Below are positions 6,248 through 36,200 of a stretch of DNA of 53,605 bases, piece after piece (within the stretch, counting starts at the first letter, position 1; each line of letters begins with the position of its first letter). The stretch lies in IMG/VR virus record IMGVR_UViG_3300009418_000023, positions 1 through 53,605 of that record. One strand, given 5' to 3'. The notes beneath the pieces were generated by a model. It worked only from the letters and a program-made list of their open reading frames with translations, ran no database searches and was not told the DNA's origin. The position numbers were made by a program, and so were the translations under genes. This DNA comes from a virus. Lineage: Duplodnaviria; Caudoviricetes.

Positions 6248-8689
6248 TTACGCAAAGAAATAATCTGATTGTAAAACTTCCTCAAGCATAAGCTTGCCCC
6301 GTGTTGGAACGTCGGGAAGTTTAATTCCTAATTGGTTTTCAACCTCCTTCTTGAAGTTTTCTAGTTGGTTTGTCTTATGAATCTTAACAAACTCTTCTCT
6401 TAGTAGGTTTCTCATATCATCTATATAATTAGCATGGCACCCGAAGGAATCATGAATCATACAGAGGTCTATTATACCACAGTCTATCAGTCTGTCAATA
6501 GTTAAAAACATATGAGCAGCATCTAAACTGTGTATAAAGTTAGGGGAGATAGCTTGTAAAGAATCACGCGGAGCCACATCATTTGTCTTAACATAGAATA
6601 TAAGTTCCTTCTTGTTAAACAGATGAGCAAGAGATCTCCTCTTCTGTTGTTTATTATACTGGTGAACTACTTTAAACCCACTGGGGGTTGTCCACTCAAC
6701 GTGTTTGTTAAGCTTGTTAGCTTCTTCAATAATAGATTTTAAATATTGTTTGCCTTTGTTTGGTCCACTTAATGAGCGGTCAAGGCTAGCTTTAATAGCT
6801 CGGGCCAGCTCAACAATAGCTGCACCCTTCTTCTCACGAGACACCCAGTCGAGGTGTCCCTCTTCTTTTAGGTATCTCTGTATTCCATAGAAAGTAAGAC
6901 CATACGGTTCACACATTGTGCTGCGCTTTGTTACCTTCCTATCAATTTTATTATCCCAAAACTCTAGAAACTCACGATACCAATCGTTGTCGCTACTAAA
7001 GTTAGTGCAATAATCAGTAGTAACATCAGCTACATACTGGTATAGATCGTGCGGTTCGTCTGAAGGAGTTACCCCAGTCAGCTTAGCAATATCAGTGTCG
7101 CCCATGATAGAAGACCAGTGTTGGTTGCCGTTACATTTACCATCGATCTGTACAGGTACATAACTCATACCATCTTTCCTAGTAATGTCAAAGATCATTG
7201 CCAATCTTTGGAAAGACTTGTTCTTCTTCTTGGAATCATCAATCCATTCTTTATTTCCATATGGATCTTGAGATATACGTTCAATCATGTCCCAGTTATC
7301 GTCAACCCATTGTATTCTTTTATCAAAGGATACTTTATCTTGGTCAAACAGGTTAGCTAGATATATTTTCTGCCAATACCTACCCCTCTCGGTTATCTTA
7401 ACACCATTAGCAAACCTAATCATCCCCCTATCTAGGTCAGATGATTGGGGGGACAGCAACTCACAGGTTGTGTATGCCCTGCCCCTGAAATCTAGGGTGT
7501 AGACATGATAGAAAAACCCCCAAGGAATAAGATTCTCAGCCAGCTGAAGACGTATTAACATCCTTCCGCGAGCTTGTTCTTGCTTATACCAATCACTCCA
7601 AGCTTCCTCTTGGCGTTGACACCAGATAGCCTGTTGTTCTTTTGACCCATCTTTAGGGTACTCCTCATTATACATGAATTCTTCGAACGAAAAGTAGGGT
7701 AGATTAGCTAGCCCAGTATTGTTCTTAAACAGGGATTCCATCACCTCTACTACTGGTTCATTGATAGACCACTCTGTTTTCATCATGTGATTCAAACCCT
7801 TAACAACCTTTAAAGAAGGGCTCGAAAATTTTTGGTCCCTTTTTTGGTCTCCAAAGAAATTAGATCTAAACTTCTGGACCATAGGTTTCCTTAGGTTGGT
7901 ATGTATATACCCACCTGTAGATATTGTAGTATGGTCTTCGGGGATAGACAACATAGGTCTATATATTAGTGTAGAGTTCTGAAGAACATCGTGTCTTTTG
8001 TGTAGCTCTCTAAGAACATCGGGATGAAACTCAACCGATAGAAATTTCTTATAAGAATTACCTCGTTTTATCATATGAGAAGTTAAGATAATTATATTAG
8101 AAGAGGCAGCTATCCTAAGCATGTTATGTCCGAAGTCATGCCTTTGTTTAATTGATAGCTTAACATTTTTGTCCATCTTATCGGCAAATGCACGGCATCT
8201 CTTAGGTGTCCAGTTCTTTATAAACTTAGATTGTCTTAACCAATCATCTCTGTTATCTTCCTTAGCTCTTTGGAACGCAATAATATCACAAGCGTCATGA
8301 GATATCTGTGTAGCTAAGGTTTGTGCTAGAGGGGGGATAACTTTATCCTTTTCCCACCTGTATCCCCAGAAGGTACTAGAGAACCAGCTTCTAATCACAG
8401 CTCTTATAGTTATGTCAGCCATCTTCTGCGGACCCAGCTCAAGTAAGGGGTACAACCATTGAGGTGACTTACTTGATTGACACACCCTATCAATCCACTC
8501 CTGAAACACTTCTCTTAGTTCTACAACAGAAGAATCAATAAGTTCTTGTTCAGGTATGCCCTCATCGGGAGCGCGCTCATAGTCTGACCAATATCTAGAC
8601 TTACCATACTCAAGCATCTCTTGTTCATACAAGATCTGCGAGTTCTTTCTCTCTAACTTAGCGTCATCAGTTAAGGTATCCCATTTCAT
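6248..8689 (-). CDS. Single-subunit T7-type DNA-directed RNA polymerase (RNAP1)
   Basis: DFRGRAY, motif A IDGKCNGNQH, DLY, motif B RKVTKRSTMCEPYG, PNFIHSLDA, motif C IHDSFG, C-terminal YFFA. Confidence 0.98.
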   Translation of the reverse strand: MKWDTLTDDAKLERKNSQILYEQEMLEYGKSRYWSDYERAPDEGIPEQELIDSSVVELREVFQEWIDRVCQSSKSPQWLYPLLELGPQKMADITIRAVIRSWFSSTFWGYRWEKDKVIPPLAQTLATQISHDACDIIAFQRAKEDNRDDWLRQSKFIKNWTPKRCRAFADKMDKNVKLSIKQRHDFGHNMLRIAASSNIIILTSHMIKRGNSYKKFLSVEFHPDVLRELHKRHDVLQNSTLIYRPMLSIPEDHTTISTGGYIHTNLRKPMVQKFRSNFFGDQKRDQKFSSPSLKVVKGLNHMMKTEWSINEPVVEVMESLFKNNTGLANLPYFSFEEFMYNEEYPKDGSKEQQAIWCQRQEEAWSDWYKQEQARGRMLIRLQLAENLIPWGFFYHVYTLDFRGRAYTTCELLSPQSSDLDRGMIRFANGVKITERGRYWQKIYLANLFDQDKVSFDKRIQWVDDNWDMIERISQDPYGNKEWIDDSKKKNKSFQRLAMIFDITRKDGMSYVPVQIDGKCNGNQHWSSIMGDTDIAKLTGVTPSDEPHDLYQYVADVTTDYCTNFSSDNDWYREFLEFWDNKIDRKVTKRSTMCEPYGLTFYGIQRYLKEEGHLDWVSREKKGAAIVELARAIKASLDRSLSGPNKGKQYLKSIIEEANKLNKHVEWTTPSGFKVVHQYNKQQKRRSLAHLFNKKELIFYVKTNDVAPRDSLQAISPNFIHSLDAAHMFLTIDRLIDCGIIDLCMIHDSFGCHANYIDDMRNLLREEFVKIHKTNQLENFKKEVENQLGIKLPDVPTRGKLMLEEVLQSDYFFA

Positions 8690-11267: not shown

Positions 11268-11282
11268 TGTTGTTCTCCTTAA

Positions 11283-11356
11283 TAGCTCCGGTGGGACTCG
11301 AACCCACACTGTATGGATTTTAAGTCCACTGCCTCTGCCAATTGGGCTACGGAGCC
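11283..11356 (-). tRNA. tRNA-Leu(TAA), short variable arm
   Basis: GGCTCCG TAGCCCAATTGGCAGAGGC A GTGGA CTTAAAA TCCAT ACAGT GTGGG TTCGAGT CCCAC CGGAGCT A folds as a full cloverleaf. Confidence 0.9.
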
Positions 11357-11359
11357 AAA

Positions 11360-11432
11360 CACTCCGGGCAGGATTCGAACCTGCGACCCACGGTTTAGAA
11401 GACCGTTGCTCTGTCCCCTGAGCTACCGGAGC
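11360..11432 (-). tRNA. tRNA-Arg(TCT)
   Basis: GCTCCGG TAGCTCAGGGGACAGAGC A ACGGT CTTCTAA ACCGT GGGTC GCAGG TTCGAAT CCTGC CCGGAGT G folds as a full cloverleaf. Confidence 0.93.
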
Positions 11433-11436
11433 AGCA

Positions 11437-14541: not shown

Positions 14542-14849
14542 TTATCTCCTAGATACCAGTCAAGAAACTCAAGCTCTATCCAATGCTTATGATCCTCTAT
14601 TGAGTATACCATGGAATCTTCGTAAGTATGAAGCATAGCATGGAGATCCCATTGTTCGGAATCGAATCTTTCTTTGTATTCCTCATATGGAATCTCAGTC
14701 CACGTACCCTCAGTGAATTGGGTAGGTAGATTGCTGGCAAAGAAATACTCATCAGAAATTGCATCAGAGATCAATTCCTTGGCATTATCGGGGGCTTGCC
14801 ATACCCAATTCCGATACCCGTATTCTTCGTCTACTAAAACTGTAAGCAT
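14538..14849 (-). CDS. Hypothetical protein
   Basis: Start MLTVLV after AAGGAG. Confidence 0.75.
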   Translation of the reverse strand: MLTVLVDEEYGYRNWVWQAPDNAKELISDAISDEYFFASNLPTQFTEGTWTEIPYEEYKERFDSEQWDLHAMLHTYEDSMVYSIEDHKHWIELEFLDWYLGDK

Positions 14850-14870
14850 AACTGCTCCTTTGAAATAAAC

Positions 14871-14968
14871 TAGCCCCGTGGGAATCGAACCCACTAGTCT
14901 TTAGTTTTTAGGCTCTACGTCACCCTACTTACCCTAGACACGTAGAATGTAGTCACCTCGACAGGGCA
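14871..14968 (-). ncRNA. tRNA-like structured RNA (T-arm, non-canonical body)
   Basis: GTGGG-TTCGATT-CCCAC T-arm; terminal GCCCTG/CGGGGC pairing possible; internal TCTACGT...ACGTAGA stem; no normal D or anticodon arm. Confidence 0.45.
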
Positions 14969-15072
14969 TTAGATTGTTCCAGTGTATTACCAGTTATACT
15001 ACATACGCGACGCGCGTAGTACATTACATACTATATTTCGCCATATGAACGGGAGTCGAACCCGTATCTCTG

Positions 15073-15144
15073 GAATGTTAGAGTAGTTTAGTGTCATGAG
15101 GCTTATATTGCCTTCCCATAGAGTTACCGCTCTTACTCAGGACA
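15073..15144 (-). repeat. ~72-bp direct repeat copy 1, putative pseudoknotted ncRNA
   Basis: Near-identical to 15837-15909. Confidence 0.85.
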
Positions 15145-15445
15145 AGTATATCGACCCATCCCGAAGGTTCCCGCCAAGGGTAGTGGCGCTATCATTCCTT
15201 ATAAAGATGACACATTTGCTACTCTTGGCTGCATCTAAACCTCAACCTAGCCCCTTCAACCGTCCAACATTACTAGGCATGTCTATATAGTTCATAGTGC
15301 AGAGGATTAGGCTACACAACCGTCAGGGGTGGCTCAATTAGTCTCACTTGGCTAGCACAATGCAAGCCCTAATGATACATCACATGAAGCGGTCTATGGC
15401 AGGGTCATGACTCCCTACATCCCTTTGTTCTCACACGTGTAAAAA

Positions 15446-15524
15446 TGGAGGCGGGCGGAGTCGAACCGCCGTCTTCGAGAGTCCGACATGCGGAGTTCTC
15501 TCGAATCTAAACCAAATCACCCCC
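15446..15524 (-). ncRNA. Mini tmRNA-like RNA (tRNA-like domain only, G3-U70 Ala acceptor)
   Basis: GGGGGTG ATTTGGTTTAGA TTCGAGAG..CTCTCGAA GAC GGCGG TTCGACT CCGCC CGCCTCC A. Confidence 0.75.
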
Positions 15525-15588
15525 CATAACGCGGAAGCCAGCGTGCTACCAGTCATAACACTACTAGGCCCAAGGTGCGACCTTGGCG

Positions 15589-15785
15589 TAACCTAGACAG
15601 GATTCGAACCTGTTCTACTGGACTCTCCTTGTTGATTGTTGACCGGCAGGATTCTCTATACCTGCAACCGAGAGATATCGTAAAGATATGGTCACCTCAG
15701 TACCAGCGTGATCCCAGTCAAGGGAATGCCCTAAACCACTTGGTCGTTGGGCAGACTACCACAGTCTACGCTTGTGCCTTAGGCT
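15589..15785 (-). ncRNA. ~197-nt multi-hairpin RNA closed by an acceptor-like stem and T-arm
   Basis: ACAGG-TTCGAAT-CCTGT then CTAGGTT-A; 5' AGCCTA pairs with TAGGTT; internal hairpins GTAGACT/AGTCTGC, TCCC/GGGA, GCAGG/CCTGC. Confidence 0.45.
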
Positions 15786-15836
15786 CCGATGTCAGAAGCC
15801 TTATTCAGCCACGGTCTACCCCCGTCGGGGTGTGTT

Positions 15837-15909
15837 GAATGTTGGAGTAGTTTCAAGTCATGAGGCTTATATTGCCTTACCATAGAGTTACACACTCTTA
15901 CTCAGGACA
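15837..15909 (-). repeat. ~72-bp direct repeat copy 2, putative pseudoknotted ncRNA
   Basis: Near-identical to 15073-15144. Confidence 0.85.
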
Positions 15910-16107
15910 GTGGTGATGCATCCCTCCCAATATTTATACAGGTAGGGAGAATCCCCTGTGATAGTTGTCTCCCCGCATCCTATAGATGCTACGAGGAATT
16001 CACAAGGCTCTCCGAAGATAGCCTATACCTCTCTAAAGGGAGAAAAGGTGTACCCCCGTTATCGAGGGGTACACCGAAGTTTGTCGAAAAAAGCAGATGC
16101 CCGTAGA

Positions 16108-16386
16108 TCAAGCCTTCTTGTCGGATTTCTCTTCCAACAGGGTAATCTTGATCCCACACGCTTCTAATTCCTTCTGAAACGCGGGTCTCTTCTCGCATGC
16201 CTTCACAGCACGGGATATCCAACGGTTCATTGCCAGCTTACCCCACTCTTTATCCTTCACGCCCATGACATTCCTAGCAGAGCACAGGTTATCCTTGATC
16301 GCCTTCTCGCTATACTCACGAGTAGGAGACTTCTTGGACCGCTCCGCAGGTGTCAGGGGTGTGATTTCGTATTCGTATGTCATCAC
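16108..16386 (-). CDS. Hypothetical protein
   Basis: GGAGG RBS before GTG/ATG. Confidence 0.7.
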   Translation of the reverse strand: MMTYEYEITPLTPAERSKKSPTREYSEKAIKDNLCSARNVMGVKDKEWGKLAMNRWISRAVKACEKRPAFQKELEACGIKITLLEEKSDKKA

Positions 16387-16593
16387 AGACCTCCGTTAAC
16401 CTTAAGTCTAACCTCAGGGTACATACACATAGTATGTAAACCCAATAACAATAACAATACAGACAAACTAAGCTTCAAACTTAGCTCATACTATACTATT
16501 ATACCCATGTATACCGCCCACGCACACAAGTGCTGCTCACACAGCAACTTACCACGTGCCCCGGCGGGCATAACAGAGTAAGGGATACTGAGA

Positions 16594-16697
16594 CAGGCGG
16601 AGCCTGAGCTAGTGTCCCACGGATTACAAGGCGGAGCCTAATCTATACTCCACAGTTGCACATACACGTTCCATATTATATATGCAGGGCGGAGCCC
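16594..16697 (-). promoter_or_regulatory. Three N4-type hairpin promoter candidates (GC-GGA-GC on the + template strand)
   Basis: CAGGC-GGA-GCCTG (16594-16606), AGGC-GGA-GCCT (16629-16639), GGGC-GGA-GCCC (16687-16697). Confidence 0.55.
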
Positions 16698-16704
16698 CTG
16701 TAAA
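16675..16704 (-). promoter_or_regulatory. Putative sigma70-type promoter
   Basis: Minus strand TTTACA-18 nt-TATAAT in an intergenic region, pointing into the early genes. Confidence 0.45.
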
Positions 16705-16740
16705 GACAGGCCACACTTGACTAATAAATAGTCGGTTCAG

Positions 16741-16775
16741 AAAAGCCCCCCTGAGGAATCTCACCTCAGAGGGGT
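16741..16775 (-). terminator. Rho-independent terminator
   Basis: Minus strand CCCCTCTGAGG-TGAGATT-CCTCAGGGGGG followed by CTTTT, downstream of 16808-17371. Confidence 0.75.
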
Positions 16776-16807
16776 GGAGTTTATTCAGTCTTTACTTAAG
16801 ACTTAAC

Positions 16808-20815: not shown

Positions 20816-20857
20816 TATAGTACTCCTTTGGGTTGTGACCCCGAAGGGTCAGACCAT

Positions 20858-20947
20858 TGGCCTGTCTCATCAGTGCTGGGCGGCCAGTCCCAACAAACAC
20901 CATACTCCTCAACCATCGGCGGTTGAGGACGTAGGGGGTGTTTCGAC
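20858..20947 (-). ncRNA. Type II hammerhead ribozyme
   Basis: GUC-GAAA-[stem III CACC...GGUG]-UU-[stem I UGUUGGG/CCCAGCA]-CUGAUGA-GAC; loop I UGGCC can pair with the 3' GGCCA. Confidence 0.85.
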
Positions 20948-20987
20948 TATTCATCCGCAGTCGAAGCGGTGTCGAGTGCGTCAGGGT

Positions 20988-21282: not shown

Positions 21283-24200
21283 CTAGTCGATTATTCCCGC
21301 ATCTCTATCGTACCTTCTTTGTTGTGCCTTACGTTCTCTATCCTCCCATTCGGGACTCCCCACAGGAGCTCCTACAAGGCTCTCAGGAGCTCGCTCAGGC
21401 CGCGTCTCTCGGATAGCCCCCACTATATCTCGTCTCATAGGACGCGGTGTGGGGGCAGCAGGAGCCTGTGAGGGGACGCTAGGAGCGGTTGTCTTAGGAG
21501 CCGGTGCAGGGGTTGCTGCAGGATTGGGATATTGCATCTTAGGAGTACCTGTAGCACCGGAGGGATTATACCCCTGAAGGAGTTGTTGTTGGATTGCTGG
21601 TGGGAGGTTTTCAAACTTAGGTTCCCACCCTAGTTCTCTAAGGATTTCTCGTAAGTCTGCGGCATATTGGGGTAAATTAGATGTCTCAGAAAAAGAACCA
21701 TAGGTTGCCCATTTTTTGTTTGATGATTTAGCACCCCTGCTCATTGAGTTGTTTTGCCTTTGCCACTCTTCGCCCATAGCGGAGAAGAATATAATCCTAG
21801 TTAAGGCATCGCCTATAACCGGAAGTGTTCTCGTTAGCATTATCATTGATGCCCAATCTGTATCTTTTTCATCATCTGTCCAGCCATCTATCAGCTTCTT
21901 AACATTATACAAGAAGGAGTTCATTGCACCCACTGGTACAAATCCAAAAGCTTCTCGGTGTGTGTTTGCGTAGATACCTACTACGGTTTCCATAAGCAAG
22001 CCTATATATCTACCAAAGTGTGGTAATCTAGCCATCATAAACAATGATTGTTTAACCGGGTCTTCTTCCCATCCCTCGATGATGTCTTCTACAGGATATC
22101 CTGCAGCTACAAGCAACAGTGACATATACAATGAATCAACCATAGCATATGAAACCCAATGAAGGGCGTTTCGTCTAAGGCTGAATCTTTGGTTTCTTCG
22201 TCCAATTTGCTGAGAAGCAAATAATACAGGATACCGCCTAAAGGTTTCAAAGATAAGATCCCAGCTACTATTGCCCGTAGCTGTATCAAAGGGATTAGGG
22301 TCGACTAAGATTTCATGGATATATCTTTTTTCTGCTCTTCTTAATCCTGAAATTATATCAAGGTATTGTTTGTATTCTGGATCTGTAGTAGCCCACTGAG
22401 GACCGCCTTCCCATGCCTCACCTTTATTCAAATTAGTTAATAATCCTCCTAAGCTGTAATACTCATCTCCCTTAGGACTGTTAACCATCTTAGCAAGGAT
22501 ATCTACATTATCGTTTGTCAGAACACCCTCATTCATTAAATACATAATGTTTGCTGCGTCTGTTCCGGGCAGGCCTACTCTTGACATTAACTTAGAAATA
22601 ATCTTACGCCCATCTACAGTATCCCATTCTTTAGGATCAACCTGCTTATGTAAACGCAAGAACTCTTTTAGCTTACTGCCATCTCCACCAACCGTAGCTT
22701 GCTGTAACCATCCTCTAAAGATCGTAGCTCGTGAGGTAGCAATCATTTGATGCAGTATTCCTGCAAGGTGCATATTACGCTCACCTAACCACTGAGGTAA
22801 CCTTTGATACCACTCCGACCTTACATCAATATCTGGCCGAGCATAGTCTGGTATCCGACCTTGGTTAAATATTCGGATAATCTCTGCCATATCTCTTGCA
22901 ACATTCTTTCTAATGTTAGGATCAAGTCCCATAAGAGGGGCAACGGCAGCCTTAATAAAACCACCCATACTACCTCGACCAAGTAGTTGATCAATCATAT
23001 TCATAGTATTCTCTACTACAAGCGTAGCCATAGTAAGGTTTGTGCCAAAGACAATTCTAACAACATCTGGAGCATATCTTGTAATAAAGTTTAGAGTTTC
23101 ATCGGCTGAGTCTCTATTACTTTCCTGTTTACCTAAAATAGTATTATACTTGATCTCTAATACACCCATTGCTTTAGTAAGTATATCACTGTCTTTAGCA
23201 CTTATACGACTACCGTCACTATTAAAAAGATTACCCATACCCAGTACATTCCTAAAGATACCTAACACATCGCCAGTAGTAGCCTTAATCCCATACTTAT
23301 CCATATACATAGATTGCTCTGCAATCCTCTGCCCAAGATGTTTCATGATACCATCTGAAATTGTTTCTGGCCCCCAGACAAGCATATCTGCAATCGCAGG
23401 ATTATTCATAACTTCGTGGACCGGAGGAATAGCCCAATCATTAGAGAAGTATATCTTTCGTCCAGCACCATTCATAATGTTTGCCACATGAACACTTACA
23501 GGACTGCTGATAGTAGGAGACTGCTGTCTTGCGGATTTTCCTTCAACGACCCCAAGAGTCGCAAGTCTGGAATCTATAGACTGACCTCTAAGTATATCTA
23601 GACGAGCTTGATTAGGTTTCTTTGCCTCAGCCCTATACTTACTCCACCAACCAGCGGTAATTCGTGTGTTTTCACTATTAAACCCCAAGTAGTCAGCACT
23701 AAACTTATTCTTTTTGTATCGCATATACCTCATAATTTGAGCTATAGCTGGTATAACATAGTTAACATAAGTATTGTGTTGTTCAATAGTAGAAGTTTTA
23801 TTTGTAAGTAAGCTACGGTATTCTTCATTTGTTTTAATACTTGCAAGTCTAGTTAGTGTGCTATCATAAGATGTGCTTCTTTCGCTCTGGCGTTGCCTCA
23901 TTAATTCGGCCATTGCCATAATTTCTTTCCAGAGTTGTGGGTTCTTAGTTTCTAACTCAGCTAACTCTTTTAGCCCTACTTCGGGATCAGCCAAATGAGG
24001 AAGCTCGCCCATTGCGTATAAAGTATAAGGACACATTCTTCTTGTTTTAAGATCTATATTCTGAGATTCCGTAACAATACGATCTCCAATAACCTTACCC
24101 ATTTCTTCTCTAAAGTTATTATAAACCGGCTGATCTTGTACCTTAGCATTCGCAAACATAAAAGGAATAGCTTCATCAAAAGCTCTATCCATAACACCTA

Positions 24201-27200
24201 CTTCGACCCCCATATGGTTTACAATACCTAGTAATGCAGCATAGTTAGTTACAATATTATCTGCTTCCTTTCTTAGCTCTGTGCTGTTTACAAGCAATGC
24301 ATCCGTGTACTCATACGCTTCTCCTGCCATTTGTTTTACTAACTTAGTCCACACTTCTTTAGCAAAGGTATCTCTTGTTTTCTCGTTTCCGGCAGTATTC
24401 CCTAATACCTGAGTTCTAAATCGAACGGTTGATTCAATAGGCCCAATAATATCATCGTAGACTCTTTCCATAGAGTTTCTAATCTCAGTAGATATTTGGT
24501 CAATCTGCTGAACAGAACCTAAGACATGGGGTATGCCATCCATATTACCCCAATGTCCTGCCATAGTACTCATTGAGTTGTCAATCATTGTTGATAACAT
24601 AACAAGTAAAGTAAAGGGAGAATTCCAAGTAGCACCGGATTCAGTACTACCAGTAGCAAGCATAGTCATAAACTGTTTTACTTTAGAACCAATACCACCC
24701 GGCCTGTTAAAGTAAGGAAGCTGCTGTATTGCCTTAGTAGCTTCAGCCATAAAGCGTCCGTCATTCCCCCGCATCATTTTAGTCATATCCATCAGTATCT
24801 GTGTAGCAAGAATCTGTTGATCATGAGGAGTACCTTCAACGAATATTCTCTTAACATCAAGAAGATCTGGACCATATGTTTCAACTGAGAAGTCCCCGCT
24901 TCTAACACTATATTGATTCTTAAGGTTTTCCCGACCTATAAGGAATTCACCTGTAGTAATACCAAGCGGTGTTATTTTATTACCGCCAAGAGTATCACGC
25001 CTATTCTCTAGCTGACCACGCTCCTTACTCAACTCCTCCCACTCCTTTTCAAACTTTCCGGATTCACTTTCAGGTGCCTCGGGAGTATAGAAGTTATGGT
25101 GTATAGCGTCCTCTAATTCACCCATTCTTCTCTTAACTTCATCAAGAGATTGTAGGGTAGCTAGTAATTCGTTCTCTGTATTCTCCACCGTAGATTGTTG
25201 TTGTGTTCCTTCTGTAGACATATACAGCGGTCCCATATCAGGGTTACCTACATCAGCTATCGTATTTCTACTTGTCTTGGTTGCATCCTGTCCTAGAGTT
25301 CTTCTGATTAAGTTAATGGCTCTTTCGTATTCAGCTGGCTCGGTTGATTTAAAATCTGAGAATACAGAAGATACTCTATCTAATATCTTACCAATAAAGG
25401 CAAAGATTTTATCAATTATGGTTTGTGTCTTTGCAAAGAATCCCGCTTCTTCGGAAGTTAGAGGAGTATTGGCTTCAACCTGCCTTAGTAATTCTAAGGA
25501 ATCGTGTACTAAATGATACCCTGTCAGGGCCGCAATAAACTCTTCGCCCGTAGTATCGTTCATAATTCTAGCATACTCATCTTGAGCAGCCTTATTCCAC
25601 TGGCCGTTATGGAAAGCCATAACAAGTTTCTTCAGTGTTCCGCCACCCTGTTTACTCCGCTCGCGTAAGAATAACGTTCTCCACTCTCTATAGTGGTATG
25701 AATCATTCTCGATAAACATCATTCTACCAATATGGCCAATCTCCTCAGCCACTAAATACGCCACACTTAATGCATCTCTTCGCCCAACTAATTGATTACC
25801 AATTCTAATTGTATACCTACCACCTGATTTTTCTGCGGATCCTCTTCGCTGTTTCCCAGAATTATCAACCCACTCACTATCTAAGAATTCAAAATTAACC
25901 TCAAGAACCATATCAGGAGCATACTTAAACCACTTACCAAGAATTGCTCTTATCATTCTAGCTTGAGCCTCAGAAAGGCGACCACCGTCAACAGCCTCTT
26001 TTATCTTAAGGGATAGTTTACCCAACTCAGGAACAGCAGATGAGAAGTTATCGTGATTTCGAAGATCTCTGCTTTTAAGATGCAGCTCATTAAATAAATC
26101 CGGATCTCTATCAAACACATGAGTATCTAATACAGAAGCTAATGCCGCCTCTGCTGAAGAATGCATCTCGGTAGACATATCTTCAATATCATATATCTCC
26201 TGCAGATAAGCAAGGAAGTCAATAGTAATATCGGAATCACCAGAAACAGTACGTTCTCCCTCGCTAATCTGATCTACGTATGATCTAGCATCCCAATAAA
26301 AATCATTAAACTGTTGACTATCGGTTGCATTTAGGATTGACATAAGCTGATTAAACTCACCCTTAACTCTAAGGTAAGCACTAGAAACATCAGCATCAAA
26401 CTTTTCTTTTTCTGCCGCTGTTTCTCGTGACATCAGGGGGAAGAATACTCTAACCTCGCCCATCTCAATATCGGGTTGCCGTAACATAAGCCCAAGTATA
26501 ATAGCTCGTATGGTTGCTGGGTTTTTAATATTCCCATCAGTTAGTTGTAGTGTAGTTACAAGGAGTTCTTGAATAGTTCTATGCTCAAGATCAACCCCAT
26601 CTGTATACACATCCATATAAGATTCTCTAACCCCAGTTAGATCATGAATAAGACTCAACCCTCTTGAGTTAGCTTGTGAGTGAGGGCTACTATGTTCCAT
26701 TTCTATATTCCAAGTTGGAACAATAGTTTTAAAGGTTGTCTTTGCTTTTCCTTTTACCGTCCCTCGGAACGGTCCTTCAGAGGCAGCCTCAATATCAACC
26801 GGCGTTGTTCGTCTAACTAATTCCTTTAGAATTTTTTCGTTAAACTCTGCATCTTCTGAAATATATTTGTTATATAGATCCATAGATGCTTCCGGCGATC
26901 TTTCATTTATCTCCGCAATTTTTCTTCTAATTGCGTCTGCCTGTATAGGAGATCCAGAACGCTCAAAAGCTAAACTCAAATCTTTCTCGGTAACCACTAC
27001 TGGTTCACCATTAACTCGCGTGCCTCTCTTTTTTAAGGCAGCAGCAAACATACCCTCTTCACTCTTCTCACCGAGTTTTAATCCTTTAAGCAAACTATTT
27101 AAAGTCCAGTTTAGACTTTGTGTAATGTCACCACCTAAAAACTTAGAATCAGCGAGCATGTTGTTTTGCATTAAGTCAATACTAAGTTCAGCAACTATCT

Positions 27201-30200
27201 GCGCAGTATTAAGATCATTAGCAAGGATACCTAACTTTCTAAGGTCAAAACTATTTCCATTATAAGTAACTACCTTGCCTCCCGCTAACAAATGCTGCTT
27301 CAACATCTTTAATAAAGCTCTAGCTTCACTTCCGCTTACTGAACGAGTAGGCGAGAAATGCTTACCCTTTTTAAACCCCACTCTTCCTGCTGCTTCAAGT
27401 GTTCTTTCAACACCACCAATACCTACAATACGTTGTTCCAAGTCCATCGTAGTTTCAATATCAATAGATATAACATTATCTGTATCGTATATCCAATTAG
27501 GGTTGCTTTGGATTTCAATAATATTAGCTGCTTCAGCTTCATCTAAACCTAGCGATGTTAAGATTTCTACTGCTTTGGTAGGATTATGTTGAGACCACAT
27601 AGTTCTTTCTGGTGCAGCCCTAGCCATAATATTCATCTCAAGCAAACCTAAACTAGATAGTCTCTTCATAGCTGTAGTAATTGGAGAGATTAAAGACTCA
27701 ATAAAGAAGGGTAATGCATTAGGTCTAAGTCCAGCATCTGGTCTATAATAATTAATCCAGTCTACAACTCTAGGTTTAATATTACCAGATGAACGAGAAC
27801 CATCAACAAGCATATGAGCAACGGTGTGTCCTGATTCAACACGATCTACTATAATCTCCATTGCTTCACTTAAGACTCTTTCTCTGTTCATCTTTTCAGT
27901 TTCACTGTAGCCGAAGTAATCAGCCATCTCTTCAGCATCAGATCGAACTAACTCAGGCTTACCTTCGGCATTAGATCGATAGCGACCTGTTGGCTTGTTG
28001 GTACGCATCGCGGTTTCTATTCTTTCGATAAAAGGATAGTTCTTATGTGACGAAAGCATCAGTAAAGCACCCATTGGTGTAATACCGAGTTTCATGTTTG
28101 TTCCGATTACCGTTCTTGGAACTCTCATAAGCATAGTAAAGGGGCCACCCATAGGATTACGTAAAATCATTTTATCAGTACGTTCATCCTTCGTTGGCTG
28201 CTGCTGTATTAACTTAACAAGGTCATTTCTACCCTCAACACTCTCTACAATAAAATCAAAGGAGAATACAGGATCATTTGCTAGTACAGCTTTCTCTCTA
28301 GCTACATTAATAATAGCTTCTCTGTGATCTGGAGGAATAGCGTTAAAGGATTGTATATCTCTTTGATTAGCAATAACTCTTAATTGTTTCTTTAGTGCGG
28401 GCTCCTTAACAATACCTATATATGTTTCTATAGCTTCAGATATATACCCATCCCACAGTACTCCTACAAGAAACTCCAACTCATCCACAGACTGAACAAG
28501 TAAGGGATGTATGGCCGTCTCTTCTAGTTTAATTGTTTCGCCCGGATTAACCCCCTCTTCAATTATAAAGTGCTCTGTAGGAACTAAGCTTTTTTTCAAA
28601 GCTTTGTGAATAAGGGTTGGTCCGGATAAGACAGAGAATGGATTATTCTCCGAATATGGACTTGTCAGGATATCATATAGCGTTCTATCTGCTAAGTCTG
28701 GATTTAAAATACCAATTTCATGTCCCTTAGTTTCCATAAGTAAGGAAGACATCTCTTTGTATCTAATATCCCGAGATAATTGGAACAGCGCGTGGAATCC
28801 TTCGAGGTATGTATTACGGGCTTGTAGTAGTTTCTCTTCGTTAGTTAGTCCTTTATCTCCATAGCGTACAGCAGAAATGATCTGGTCCATTTCATGTTCA
28901 AGTTTTTGATCAAACCTATATACTAAATACAAGTACGGTACCATTTCTGGATCAAGCATCTCTGCCTCAAAGCCACGTTCTATTGCCCACTTACTCATCT
29001 TCATCTCAACAACATTAGCTACCATCTCAGGTGCATTAGCATCTAATCCCATAAGATAGTCTAGATAATCAGACTTAACATCTGGACCCATTGGAAGAGT
29101 TTCTCTATTCCAAGGTTTCTCGAATCCTCTACTAGTTACTGGAATTAAGTGATCAGGGTTTTCTAAGGGTTGGTCTAACATAGCCGATACTTCTTCAATA
29201 GGACTCATCATCTCTCGTTCAGCGGCATGATAAGCTTTATTCTGAAGGTATAGGTTGCCCTTATTGTGATAAGGCATTCTCCTAGTTTCAGGAGCCCAAG
29301 ACATGTATCCCCTTGGTTTGTCTGTAGACTCGAATACCATATCTTCTGTATCGTGTCGTAGTTCTGTCATTGTATGTTCTGCGGACCCTCTGAAGGTCAT
29401 AGGATGTCCTGCGACTGGGACCAGTAAACCTATACCCTTAGAGAAATAATCTATGCTTGCTTGGTTTCGAGAACCATCAGCATTCCTAACACTATCTTGT
29501 TGTAGTCTTTGCGCATTAGTATGATCTATAGCAGCTTCTTGAGAATGCTCCCACCACTGACTCAATACTTCGGCTTCGAGTTCATCCATATTATCTTCAG
29601 CTTTATATTTTGACAGAGGCGGCTTCTCGGGTTCTGTAACTCTAAGAAGCATTTCATTTCTCATCATAAGAACAGCAATAGTATGATCCATTCTCTTGTG
29701 CCACTCCGCTACTTCAGCGTCATTATCAAAATCAACCATTCTCATTATGGGGTTGCCATATTTATCTAACCTTACCTTCCCATTTTTATCCCTAACCGGA
29801 ATCTTTTGATGAGGATTATCTTCCATTCTCCACTGACCCAACGGAGATTCGCCTTCTACGTCTACAAATACTTGCTTACCGTTTACATATTCGTAGGGAT
29901 TTTCAGACCACTCCATGATCTTTCTACCAATCTTAGCAGGGTTATCCCAATCTTCATCTCTAATCTCTTCTGCTACGAAACTTTTAAACGCATCTTGATT
30001 AGTTTGGATTCTAGCAAACATCGTGTTGTGATGGTGTCTATTCATATTAGAACTTGCAGAATAGGTTCTATAACTCTCAAGACCGGGTAAGAAGATTTGA
30101 TACAGAATAAAGTTCTGAATTCCAAGAAGATCTTCTTCATTAAATCTCTGGTGATTAGTTGCTGCTTGTGCCTTTAATACATCTACAGCAACTCTGAACC

Positions 30201-33200
30201 CCGTAGAGTTTACTGTATTTAATGCTCTGAATAATTGATTATGTTTCCAGTGCATACCCTTTGGTTGCAGTAATTGGCCAACCTCTTCCCTTTCAGCTAA
30301 AGTTAGCTTTCCTCCTTCTCCCGGCTTTGCCCTAGCATCTGCTTTCCTAATGATTGCGTCAGCTTTCATCAACCTACTATTCTTATACTTCTCCTTAAAT
30401 GCTTCTACAGTCATCTGAACTCTTTCGCCATCCGGTCCTATCATCATCTCACGCTTAGCTAACATAGCAATATTTAGATCCAGTTGTCGGCGTAAATAAT
30501 CTCTTTTCATAGCGGGGTTATTTTGATCTGTTTTCTTAATCTCCTTGTTCCGCATACTCTTTACAGTTGAAATCCAATCTGTTATATGCCTATCTGTCAT
30601 GTTTTCGTGCATTGACAGAATTTTTCTTGCTTCTTCCCGAAGACCCTCAATACCCAAAGCTACATCAATAACAGCAGCGTTCTCACCCGCTATATGGTCA
30701 AATATAGAATGTCCAAACAAAGCCATAACATGTGATATACCTTCAGATTGATCCTTAAAATTAAAACCAAACTCTTGCCTCAGCCTAGTCAGGATACCTA
30801 CAAACATTGGATCGGTTTGTAGTTCTACCCAGCCTTTCCATCCCATAGTATATAGCCTACGCATAACTTCTGGTTTCCAGAATTCACGCATCAGCTTCAT
30901 CTTCCTAACCATATCAGGATCAGAGCCTTCATTACTAACGTAATCAGTATACTTAGTATGATCATCGATTCCCAACGTAGCTAACTGATCATAAAACGTA
31001 ACCATTGGAGAGAGAAGTTCGCCATATTCTGGGTGTGCTAAAGCCTTTCTTCTAACGGTTTCAGCAAAACCTAAACCAGCTCTGATATAATAATCTTCAG
31101 CCTCAATAGACATATTCATTTTATTCCTTAACTCACCCATAGCGGTAATAGCTGCTTCGCTACCGAGACTTAGAATCTTAGTTACAAATAAACCATTAAA
31201 CTTCTTATCCAAGTAAGTCTTTGGTGAAAGGATCCTTTTATAGAACTCTGGGTTTTCCCAATACTTTGGCCCAAACTCTTTATAATGTTCTTTTGCATAG
31301 GCTTGTTCTGCTTCGGTAGCCTGTTGAATAACATCATTGGCTAATCCTTCTAAGTGCATGTTCATGCTTTCTAAAGCAAGTATAGAAGAAATACCACTCA
31401 TTGGAACAATAGTAGGTAAGCCTGTAGTAAGCTCAGGGTGTATCATTTTAAAAGCTGCATCACCCTCTGAAGTATAGACTAACCCCGGACCAGCCGCCCA
31501 ACGAGCATCATGGAGGAAAGCATAAGCAATATTTGCTGTATCTAATAGAACCTCAGAAAGAATATTCTTAAGTTCTTCTCTAGTAGTAATTCTATCGTTT
31601 AGTCTTACATTAATAATAGGAGGCAATAACCTAGCATCTGGTTGAAGACTTCTAGAAACAGGTCTACCCGGCACAGCACCATCTTTATCTTCTAGATAAG
31701 CGTTGTATTCTATAATATCGTTCTCATCAATCTCTTCTGTAAAGATAAACTCTAATCGTTTCCTTACAATAGCATCTTCAATCACAAGAGCAACAGCCTC
31801 AGGTCGTTCTGGAGCAAAGGAAGTCATGTGTCCCCGTAACATCGGGTGTGTCCGGACTGTCTCTCCTTCTTGCGGCTCATCAAAACGATTCTCTTCTTTT
31901 CTTTCTGATCTATATTCTGGGGATTTTCGTCTCTTGGTAACTATTTCTTTAGTTTTTAGTCTGGTTACTAAAGCAAAGTCAACCAGTTCCCAACCAAGCC
32001 GTCTTGCTGGTTGCCAGCCCCGAGTACCGTCCCCCATACTAATGATCTCGTCTCTAGTAATTAGGGTGTGTTCATTATCACCCTCTGCAAGCCTATCAAG
32101 AATTATACTAGCTATTCTATCTAGGTCTTTTAAGTCTTCTGGAATCTTAAAGTAAGCATATATATCTTTCTTCTGTCTTTGAGATTGCATAAAGAGTACT
32201 TCTAATTGCTCAACTATACCCTTTCTAACCTCCTCAAGATATTTCATCTCTGCTTCTGCTCTTGATTCCGGATCATCTAGATCAAAGGTAATTGTTTGGT
32301 CAAGATCGGGAGAAAGATTATCTGTTAAATCAATTAGGAAACCATACTGATTAAACAAATCATCATCGACTGCTCTCGACGCTTTCATAAGTCTATCGGT
32401 AAACGCAATGGCAGTATATAACCCAATCTTAGATTTAGGATCTCTATCATAAACCATAACATCTTCTTCTGTAGCCCTAGTTTCAGCATTCTTTGCTATT
32501 ACTGCCTGATGTGCCGTGTCTCGTTTTTTGATAAAGGTTACTAATCCTTCATCCCCCTTGAAGTCATGCAACAGACTTTTTAAAAGGTTCTTAGGAAATC
32601 CACCTTCCCCTGCTAAAGTAAGGGCTCGAACATCCTGTACAAACCCCCAATCTGTTAGATCTGGGCTAACGAGAGTCTTCCCTTCAGCTTCAAGGCGGTT
32701 ATTGATGCCCGAGATATATCTAAATAATCCTAACTGACCTTCTTCTGACTCGAAAGCCTTAAAGAGTTTGTGTATAATTTGCCTTGCTTCTAGTTCGTTA
32801 ATACGGCCATCCTGAAGTGCCGTCCTAATTTCTGCAACCCATGAATTAGCTTCGTGGATTCTCCACTTCTCCCCCTTTTCCTCAATCCTCTGAAGAACCT
32901 TTTGAACCTTTGCATCACCTTCTTTCGCTACAAGTCTCCGTCCTCTAATGCGGCGAACTAAGTCTGTGAGAGACTCTTTTGAGATTGCTTTAAGATCACC
33001 ATTAGCTCTCATTATTCTACGAGTAACTAAGGCAATAAGTTTATCTAATCTAACAAACAAAGTATCATACTCAAGACTCAAATCTTCCATCGTTCTGTTA
33101 CTAGGAAACTCCTCGCCTTCTGCATTAACAATAACTTCTCTAAAGACTGCATCATAGATACCATCTGGGAGACAACTATCAACAACGAAGATTGGAACCA

Positions 33201-36200
33201 ATCCTACTTCAGGATCTAAGGCTCTACCCCACGGTCCTTCAAGTACAGATATTAATTGCGAATGAAACTCTTGAAGTGCCATCAACTCTTCTGCTAATGT
33301 AAATGCATACTCTTCAGGAACTATTCCTCTATCTATACTTTCTTTGTTTATCGCGGTTTTGTTTGCAGCTTCAGTATTAGTTCGATCAATAGCTGGAGCT
33401 TCTGTAGCTTGGTTAATCCCCCACTGAGAAGCAGTAATTGGCCTGTTACTTACACGACTCCAATTAACATCTTTGAAGTAGTTCCTCTTAATAGACTTTA
33501 TATATGTCTCTCGTTCTTTAGCAGCCTCTTCAAATATAGCTAATGCTTCTTCCTTACTATAAACAATTGGATCCTCATCGCTATCTGCTCTCTCATCTAT
33601 TTCTTTCTTAACCCTGTCTTTGGTAGCACTTTCAGGTAAGAACGCTCCTAATAAGTCTTCAGCAGAAATAGTCTCTGTGGTTTCGAGTTTCTTTGTTAAT
33701 ACATGTCTTCGTATTGTTAAAGTCTTTAGTTCTTTATTACGATAATCTAATACTGCCCTGATTGTTTTCAGCTGATAAGACGCAAAACCATATTTCCTAG
33801 CCATATCTAGTTTGTATCTTAAGGATATCTTTTCACGCTTTCTATCTAACCTCTTCATATCCTCTTCTAATTTCTCCAATTGTCTATATTCATCTGAAGG
33901 TTGAATTACCTTAGTAAATATTTCATTCTGCATTCCAATAAGACCCAAAGCTAATGCTCTTAAGTCATCAAGCTTAACCCGCCCACTCTTTATACCTTCT
34001 AGGAGACTAGCTTTATTTTTTTCATTACTCTTTATAGTTTCCCATGTCTGTACAGCCTCTTCAAGATCGGCCCATTCTTCAGGAGAAACATCATTCTTAT
34101 CCATTTCCCCCTTTTGTCTCCACTTTGGGTGTTTCCCTGCTTCTGCTTCTGCCGCAATCGTATCAACAAAGGTTTTACTTAAGGTGCCAACTACTAGAGA
34201 AAGTTTAGATATCCTTTTACCCTTTTCACCTACATACTTTGTATCAATAGCATCTCGTATCTCTTTAACCTTTTCAGTTAACTCACCGATCTCCTTCTTT
34301 ACGTCTCTTAAAGCTTCACTATCGGATTCAACATCCTGCCACGCAGCAATACTTTCATCAAACTCGGAGATTAACTCGTCCATTTCAGCAATAAGTTCGT
34401 CAAGTTTATTCCTTATTTTTGGATCGGTAGTTCCTTCTCGTTCTTCTTCAAGAGCTGCCTTAAGGCTTTCAGCTTCCTCTTTCTCTTTTGTTGTTTGGAC
34501 AACTGCGGATTGTTGCTCTCCTTCTTGTGCTCTAAGACTATCTATCCTAGCGTTTACAAGACCCTCCCCCTCAAGATCTTTCTTTCGCCATGCTTCCTCT
34601 TCTTCAGTTAGTTTTTTGTCGGCAATAATCTTCTTAGCAATACGATCAGAAATCTCCCAGTCAGTCTCTGGAACCTTATCAGTTACCTCCTTGATCTCAG
34701 CATCAATCTTTTTAATAGCTACAGTAAGTTGCCTAACTGTTTCCTTCTTACTTGCAAAATCTTCAAGTTCAAACAACTCTTCTACCGTAGTAACTTTTTC
34801 TCTGTCTATCTCAACTTTTTCCATACCCTTTTTTCTCTTGTGAGATATTTTACCAGTCTTAGAGTGCTTCCAATAAAAACCCATACGAAATATTTCACCA
34901 GCAAAGGATTCTACTATACCGGTAATTTGTGCTTGTATCTTACCCTTCCTCTCAACTTTATCTTGTATCCCCGCCATTGCCTTTTCTCGTTCAGCTTGAG
35001 CTACTCCAGCCTCCTTTAGTCTCTTGGCTCTTTTTCTCGCCGCCCTCATTAGGCTAACCTTACGTCTAAGTGTAGACGGTTTTTTTGGAGCTAGCTGTGG
35101 TGACTCCTTTATCTGTTTTTTAATAATACGGTCTACTGCTTCTTTATGCTCATTATATATCTTCTCTTCTTCCTTAGTTAATGTCACATCACCTCTTTTT
35201 TTAATAGCAATATCAACTAAGACAGAATCTTCCTCCTCCTCCTTCGCTTGAATTAAAGAGTCAACATCTTCAGCCTTTTGTTTAAGTCTTTCTAACTCTG
35301 TTGTATTAGCCTCTAAAGAAAGTTTAAGTTTCTCTTCCTTTTCTCTAAATTTTTCCTCAACCTCAACCTCAATATCATGAACTACTTTAAGCTTTTCTGC
35401 AGCTGTGGCTGTATCAAAATTAAGTCCTTCTTTATCCATCCTCACACGAACCATACTCTCTACATTATCATCAACATATATTTCCCAAAGATCTTCATCA
35501 GAAATTTCATCTGTTTGATTAAGCCACTCCTCTGGGGTAAAGTTAGTTCCGTTTTCCTCATTCAACTTACGTACATATCTTGCCACCCGAAGCCTAGTTT
35601 TTGCTATAGCTGTACGTTCTCCTAGTTGTTTAGCTAAAGTCTGGGCTTCTGGTCCTCCTAATCTTTGAATTAGTCTATTAGCAATCTCATCTAGAAGTAC
35701 ATCATCAGATATCTTCTCCCCATCCAAATCATTTTTAATTTCTTCTAACAGACTAAGAATACTGGTTACATCATCATATGTATTAACCCCGTCTCTGATC
35801 TGCCAAGGATCAAGAACAAAACCAAGAGGTCCATCCATTAAATCATTTAAGTCAATATCTCCACCTTCTTGTCGAATAGAGTTTAAGGAATCAACGACTG
35901 AATCACCTAACTCATAATGCTCTATAGCTGCTAAGATAGGATTATCACTACCCCTTGCGGCTGCCTTCCAAGCTTCTGTAATACTAGACCTAAGTCTAGC
36001 ACCAAGTGGAAGACTCATAATACCTTGACCAATTATACCACCAGCTGCTGAAAGAGGAGCGTTTACTGTATACTTCATAGCTGTTCCAAGGATTGGGTTT
36101 GCTACGACAGAGAACACAGCCTCCATCTTTGCTTCAGCCCAGATACCACCTAAATCATACTCATCAATAAACCCTCTTTTAATTTTCAAAGTTTGGTTTA

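Follow-up and report, generated by a model that had tools for sequence, protein, structure and literature searches.

Whether a tailed phage can carry a tmRNA stripped down to its tRNA-like domain (TLD), and what such an RNA would do during infection, are the questions raised by a 79-nt minus-strand locus in an IMG/VR virus record, whose whole 53,605-base stretch is referred to here as the window. The locus, which we call a mini-tmRNA, had been predicted from its letters to be the TLD of a tmRNA, devoid of any mRNA or tag domain, and its structure, relatives, genomic setting and possible role are described below.

The window record is rated 79% complete, nearly all of its long open reading frames (ORFs) are on the minus strand, and the gene set is T7-like (Table 1). 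Its terminase is at most ∼39-40% identical to those of T7-like phages of Synechococcus, Pseudomonas, Roseobacter, Pelagibacter, and Rhizobium, and the 24 sequencing runs listed with the window DNA are all DNA runs from marine or seawater metagenomes. A 5359-aa ORF (21283-37362, minus strand), unusually large for a T7-like phage, has no Pfam family in either half, and neither does the 1430-aa ORF that comes after it. Between this giant ORF and the small early ORFs sits a type II hammerhead ribozyme match (20856-20948, minus strand; RF02276, 39 bits, cut-off 37), one stem of which carries an insert of 35 nt.

The mini-tmRNA reads from 15524 to 15446, the original prediction having left the strand unstated, and is a complete TLD in which all of the predicted elements are present: an acceptor with G3-U70, a 12-nt D-loop analogue, an 8-bp P2 with a hairpin, a GAC linker, and a perfect T arm. 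By sequence and fold, the acceptor stem has 7 bp and includes G3:U70, and the D-loop analogue carries the conserved GG..UU.GA, with no D stem. P2 is formed by UUCGAGAG (RNA 20-27) paired with CUCUCGAA (RNA 44-51), and encloses only a 3-nt AAC bulge (RNA 28-30) and a 13-nt hairpin, UCCG-CAUGU-CGGA (RNA 31-43; 4 bp with a 5-nt loop), an insert that occupies the place of the pseudoknots and tag frame of cellular tmRNA. The T arm (GGCGG-UUCGACU-CCGCC) has a 5-bp stem, CCA is not encoded, and the trailer is UUUUU. The minimum free energy (MFE) is -34.2 kcal/mol, with a z score of -2.80 (equalled by 1 of 200 shuffles), and the architecture pattern has a single match in the window, compared with none in 100 dinucleotide-preserving shuffles.

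Table 1. Features of the mini-tmRNA and its surroundings, with window coordinates
Feature	Position	Strand	Basis and remarks
Mini-tmRNA (TLD-only tmRNA)	15446..15524	-	RF00023 match; predicted mature length 79 nt before CCA addition
Acceptor 5' strand GGGGGUG, RNA 1-7	15518..15524	-	Sequence and fold; pairs with 15447-15453, includes G3:U70
D-loop analogue, 12 nt unpaired, AUUUGGUUUAGA, RNA 8-19	15506..15517	-	cmscan alignment to tmRNA consensus
P2 helix, AAC bulge and cap hairpin	15474..15505	-	Fold
GAC linker (RNA 52-54) and T arm (RNA 55-71)	15454..15473	-	cmscan alignment
Acceptor 3' strand CGCCUCC (RNA 72-78) and discriminator A79	15446..15453	-	Sequence
Spacer between manA RNA and mini-tmRNA, 111 nt	15525..15635	-	Three-hairpin junction fold
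manA RNA motif	15636..15831	-	RF01745, 79 bits (cut-off 55.2); 111 nt upstream of mini-tmRNA
55-nt direct repeat, copies 91% identical	15891->15837 and 15127->15073	-	
tRNA-Arg(UCU) and tRNA-Leu(UAA)	11282..11433	-	ARAGORN; RF00005, 68.9 and 62.2 bits; ∼4 kb downstream of mini-tmRNA
Single-subunit RNA polymerase	6248-8689	-	T7-like gene set
Primase/helicase, DNA polymerase, gp2.5-like SSB, RusA, large terminase, nozzle/tail protein		-	T7-like gene set

The Rfam tmRNA model RF00023 matches the locus end to end at 51.0 bits (E = 3e-17; gathering score, 47), with 14 nt taking the place of 306 model positions, which bears out the predicted 79-nt TLD without an mRNA or tag domain. Alanine identity is present, as G3:U70 in a 7-bp acceptor and a discriminator A, and so is the TLD shape, with a D-loop analogue lacking a D stem, P2 replacing the anticodon arm, and a T arm of the GGUUCGAnUCC type. 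Alignment to bacterial one-piece tmRNA through RF00023 thus accounts for the acceptor, G3:U70, A73, D-loop analogue, P2, GAC, and T arm, whereas the mRNA-like domain (resume codon, tag reading frame, and stop codon) is missing, as are pseudoknots PK1 to PK4, the fold having only a bulge and a hairpin within P2. Without a resume codon, tag frame, and stop, the window RNA cannot serve as a template for tagging or for termination. The SmpB determinants of the TLD include its GA and GAC elements. Of the two Rfam models named for checking with the original prediction, the other, that for mitochondrial tmRNA (RF02544), gives no match at E <= 10 (13 candidates scored). Our own family model, R1, scores the window mini-tmRNA at 81 bits, although the window sequence was in its training set.

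An ordinary tRNA, the identity that the prediction had set against its own, was rejected: RF00005 gives 18.6 bits, under its cut-off of 29, and the tmRNA model scores above its own. ARAGORN, also put forward as a check, calls neither a tRNA nor a tmRNA at the locus. ARAGORN needs a tag frame for tmRNA calls, so TLD-only forms usually go unannotated. A hidden tag was also considered and rejected. No ORF of at least 50 aa overlaps the mini-tmRNA on either strand, and no frame has a stop triplet 3' of the P2 5' strand, so that a tag frame could not terminate inside the RNA.

An RNA of this kind has been published. PMC4131195 lists "Mycobacterium phage DS6A (TLD only)" among tmRNAs, citing Mao et al. 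2009, and gives the account that tmRNA was strongly inhibited by a similar molecule, irrespective of whether this could be charged, with titration of SmpB as a possible cause; according to PMC11915505, which cites the same work, endogenous tmRNA of E. coli was inhibited by the DS6A form. We located the DS6A RNA at 28478-28560 of JN698994.1, where RF00023 gives 43.2 bits, below the cut-off and compared with 51.0 for the window RNA. R1, built from 30 sequences that did not include DS6A, gives DS6A 28478-28557 a score of 51.5 bits (E = 4.6e-8), compared with ∼23 bits for ordinary tRNAs. Because a model built without DS6A finds it, and because the A-rich loop and hairpin are shared, the comparison identifies the window RNA as a homologue of the DS6A "TLD only" tmRNA. 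Both are phage-borne RNAs of ∼80 nt with a complete TLD and G3:U70 and with no tag frame or pseudoknots, and the DS6A P2 has an A-rich loop and a small hairpin cap, as in the window's kind, with CGAAAA versus the AAC bulge of the window. The carriers differ, DS6A being a temperate siphovirus of an actinobacterium whereas the window represents a marine T7-like podovirus; unlike the DS6A RNA, that of the window adjoins a manA RNA, and little sequence is shared outside the conserved TLD core. The original prediction held tag-less forms to be known mainly from protist mitochondria; mitochondrial forms do exist, but the statement was incomplete, a phage form having been published since Mao et al. 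2009.

Natural TLD-only tmRNAs without a tag frame are described in PMC11915505 from jakobid and oomycete mitochondria and, as ∼65-bp plastid forms, from Mallomonadaceae. These organellar CDS-less tmRNAs are the sole tmRNA and have their own SmpB, whereas the window RNA is an extra, virus-borne copy of the bacterial type and is not matched by the mitochondrial model. Complete phage tmRNAs are reported from the mycobacteriophage Bxz1 group, Bacillus phage G, and the OM43 phage Melnitz, the last with a two-piece ssrA placed behind an early promoter (PMC4131195, PMC9004378). Like the window RNA, these are phage genes derived from ssrA, but they have kept the tag frame and are found by ARAGORN, which misses the window RNA. 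The phage tmRNA census described in PMC9004378 used ARAGORN and so counted only complete forms, and our literature searches found no survey of TLD-only tmRNAs across phages.

Mini-tmRNAs are more numerous among viruses than these reports would suggest. A strict architecture pattern found 4 further viral loci, and a looser one, run across IMG/VR, found 83 (57 unique sequences, 63 to 86 nt). Because the same pattern has only 8 loci, all in metagenome-assembled genomes (MAGs), in 185,579 species genomes (one genome per species), the distribution indicates that the mini-tmRNA form is phage-specific. Full-length tmRNAs (69.9 to 121.6 bits) are also present in three of five tested species genomes with the mini form, and in those three the acceptor stem, D loop, and T arm of the mini differ from those of the resident tmRNA; the minis are thus not recent deletions of the host gene. 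Ordinary tRNA genes lie beside the mini-tmRNA in 14 of 84 viral loci scanned, some of them in arrays of 7 to 8 tRNAs. Half of the 8 species-genome matches are in CPR bacteria (L154, L159, L161, and L155; Saccharibacteria/Patescibacteria MAGs), and one CPR genome (G001) also holds a full-length tmRNA.

Covariation was evaluated over 30 sequences sharing the D-loop length of the window and the long form. Pairing holds in 96.8% of cells, compared with 67.6% for shuffled sequences and 41 to 54% for slid controls, and the covariation score of 0.726 was reached by none of 500 shuffles. Both-sided changes occur at all seven P2 pairs and at three of the five pairs of the T stem, which is 100% paired, and RNAalifold over all 58 sequences agrees. 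The family columns GGGG, GA, GG.UU.GA, GAC, T loop, and CUCCA were forced by the search patterns and are not independent evidence. The scan was repeated with positions 3 and 70 left free, restricted to genes with an encoded CCA, and G3:U70 was kept in 34 of 34 family matches, although these are not mutually independent and the 83-locus scan had already returned 33 of the 34 contigs. Because the Rfam match, the family covariation, and the homology to a published case agree, the window locus is identified as a genuine tmRNA TLD without an mRNA or tag domain.

The interior of P2 is characteristic of the family and varied within it. Most long forms have an A-rich 5' strand, typically U/G-AAA-G/A, and a 3- to 4-bp hairpin starting with CC, followed by one to three purine-rich bases before the P2 3' strand; in 8 unique sequences P2 ends instead in a simple loop or an irregular short cap (<27 nt between the P2 strands). 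The window mini-tmRNA departs from its own family in having the AAC bulge in place of the usual UAAAG, and its CCGCAUGUCGG hairpin is also found in L034 and in a Saccharibacteria MAG. The A-rich loop opens with a stop triplet (UAA, UAG, or UGA), placed directly behind the P2 5' strand, in 35 of 56 long forms, and the other 21, the window among them, lack it; the triplet could hint at a stop codon offered in trans, which we treat as a lead only. Several family members have UAA and GAA facing each other on the two loop strands.

In the direction of transcription, the window locus is organized as a 55-nt repeat, the manA RNA, the spacer, the mini-tmRNA, ∼315 nt without notable fold, and a second copy of the repeat, after which two T-arm-like hairpins precede a small ORF with a ribosome-binding site. 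A sigma-70-like promoter (11 of 12; 16704->16675) lies further upstream, with a terminator-like hairpin (16075->16047) between it and the RNAs. The block is located among small ORFs, 6.8 kb upstream of the RNA polymerase gene, where, we infer, T7-like phages usually have their host-transcribed early genes. The spacer, folded as a 116-nt stretch (15525-15640), has an MFE of -40.2 and a z score of -2.71, with none of 200 shuffles as good; it includes a T-arm-like hairpin (15613->15597) and a partial RF00005 match of 13.2 bits, and is probably part of a shared precursor. Other folds nearby are unremarkable (14870-15075, z = -0.62; 15128-15442, z = +0.50). Like the mini-tmRNA, both tRNA genes lack an encoded CCA and have U-initial trailers, common ends that fit one shared maturation route. 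There is no SmpB gene in the window. The window manA has no match by nhmmer in the other 84 mini-tmRNA loci, tblastx found no shared flanking proteins among the mini-tmRNA loci, and the comparison indicates that the manA neighbourhood is particular to the window phage.

Two further observations concern this region. Three extra T-arm-like hairpins on the minus strand (15597-15613, 15049-15069, and 14878-14894) have GGUUCGAnUCC loops, 5-bp stems, and RF00005 scores of 13 to 14 bits. The two copies of the 55-nt repeat immediately precede the manA RNA and a T-loop hairpin, respectively; the repeat may be a promoter or leader.

Natural variants were surveyed by comparing contigs of four marine metagenome runs over 14800-16800, which reports on presence, not on abundance or expression. 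The similarity of one variant contig to the window is confined to 15443-15524, where there are 3 differences; its remaining 280 letters, which lie 3' of the RNA, do not resemble the window. Another contig runs from the mini-tmRNA 5' end through the spacer to the manA RNA, and of its 7 substitutions and 14 gap letters nearly all fall in the spacer. Likeness among variants also ends at the manA borders (15636 and 15844/15845). One listed substitution falls inside the mini-tmRNA, 15475 T>C, on other contigs of two runs (X13 and X16); it converts U21-A50 to U21.G50 and keeps the P2 pairing. To judge from these contigs, the manA RNA and the mini-tmRNA behave as conserved modules in mosaic surroundings. 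Short contigs match only the T arm and the acceptor 3' strand (15440-15473; 2 to 3 differences in 33 to 34 nt) and continue into unrelated sequence; these may be cellular tmRNA 3' ends of marine bacteria, and a lead to the host.

A blastn search of 15300-15900 against a cultured-phage collection gave no match, and relatives sought in viral contigs through a 627-aa neighbour protein gave none. RNA polymerases 54 to 74% identical to that of the window are encoded at 23 loci, none of which has a mini-tmRNA, with only 4 of the 23 extending at least 7 kb upstream, and neither tmRNA nor manA was matched in an Rfam scan of 7 of the 23. In five related records, each searched over its full length (57 to 100% complete, one with terminal repeats), the mini-tmRNA is likewise missing, their only matches, at 23 bits, being tRNAs. 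Because it is absent from the related phages searched, the mini-tmRNA is marked as an accessory, sporadically distributed gene that is dispensable for the lineage of the window.

As to function, we favour interference with trans-translation through SmpB, in competition with host tmRNA, and put the probability of this at about 60%. The idea, which the original prediction had raised as an SmpB decoy or inhibitor of trans-translation, has a precedent, by analogy, in DS6A and hence is not new. The mini-tmRNA would be transcribed early, in the small-ORF region upstream of the RNA polymerase gene and probably jointly with the manA RNA, and would be excised like a tRNA, with RNase P acting at the 5' end, an RNase Z-type cleavage after A79, and CCA added by a host enzyme. 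Host AlaRS would recognize it by G3:U70 and A73, and host SmpB by the D-loop analogue and GAC elements. With no resume codon, tag frame, or stop, it could not complete trans-translation and so would draw SmpB, and possibly also EF-Tu and stalled ribosomes, away from host tmRNA, such that ssrA tagging and rescue would be lowered during infection. The invariant G3:U70 argues that charging matters, and since inhibition in E. coli, as related in PMC4131195, had no need for charging, a pure SmpB sponge leaves that invariance unexplained. Selection on the mini-tmRNA may extend beyond SmpB titration.

The same base pair lends some weight to tag-free rescue, an alternative that we consider unlikely but worth serious attention. 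Alanyl-mini-tmRNA would enter stalled ribosomes with SmpB and EF-Tu and take over the nascent chain, and the complex would be resolved by a release-factor-like rescue protein, peptidyl-tRNA hydrolase, or drop-off, leaving no ssrA-dependent degradation mark, an outcome that would suit a phage degrading host mRNA and needing ribosomes. Retention of G3:U70 in all 34 matches in which it was free argues for selection on charging, although we know of no route for release after transfer without a stop codon. The stop triplet that starts the A-rich loop in 35 of the 56 long forms would be in keeping with such rescue, but it is lacking at that point in 21, and the window RNA has none 3' of P2. CDS-less tmRNAs persist alongside SmpB in jakobid and oomycete mitochondria and some plastids, where PMC11915505 describes them as thought helpful; against this, the sole published experiment that we traced, as given in PMC4131195 and PMC11915505, is one of inhibition, not rescue.

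A broader proposition, which we regard as doubtful, is that phage mini-tmRNAs are a distinct and widespread family with its own conserved P2 module of an A-rich loop, in many cases opened by a stop triplet, and a 3- to 4-bp hairpin, are not accidental ssrA deletions, and act charged on the ribosome. If so, charged minis might, for example, finish a stalled chain with one alanine or attach several in succession, either effect exceeding the mopping-up of SmpB, and the window copy, with no stop triplet, would be a variant of that charged mechanism.

Phages carry spare tRNAs against anticodon nucleases, and the mini-tmRNA might act similarly, as a decoy for a host defence or toxin by which tmRNA or tRNA-like RNAs are sensed or cut, or which relies on an SmpB-like reader. 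We think this highly improbable, since we know of no defence system that targets the TLD and nothing in the window ties the mini-tmRNA to a defence or counter-defence gene, although its accessory, sporadic nature, its early-region location, and the adjoining tRNA genes in 14 of the 84 loci would agree with such a role, and systems with SmpB-like domains are described (CoCoNuTs, PMC10542128). Least credible, and already disfavoured, is a non-functional remnant (an integration-site copy or decayed captured tmRNA pseudogene) or mere tRNA-like processing signal punctuating the transcript: tmRNA genes are common integration sites and ssrA fragments occur in prophages (PMC9004378, PMC11590407), and three further T-arm-like hairpins are nearby, but both TLD halves are present and paired, a state for which an attP copy of the ssrA 3' end has no need, P2 shows family-wide covariation, the minis differ from full-length tmRNA of the same genome and are not recent deletions, and no integrase family was found among 46 ORFs scanned against Pfam in this 79% complete record, the integrase of DS6A being ∼10 kb from its RNA. 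The attP copy was rejected on these grounds.

The single window locus is genuine, but its kind was already known, and with it a marine T7-like phage joins the carriers of TLD-only tmRNAs. Together with the 83 look-alike viral loci, it makes a form reported for one phage (DS6A) in the accounts cited here a common and usually unannotated one, and the mini-tmRNA family as a whole is probably under-annotated. The invariant G3:U70 is the feature by which an SmpB sponge could be told from an RNA that acts when charged. If mini-tmRNAs block or redirect trans-translation, ribosome rescue would be a regular target of phage takeover.
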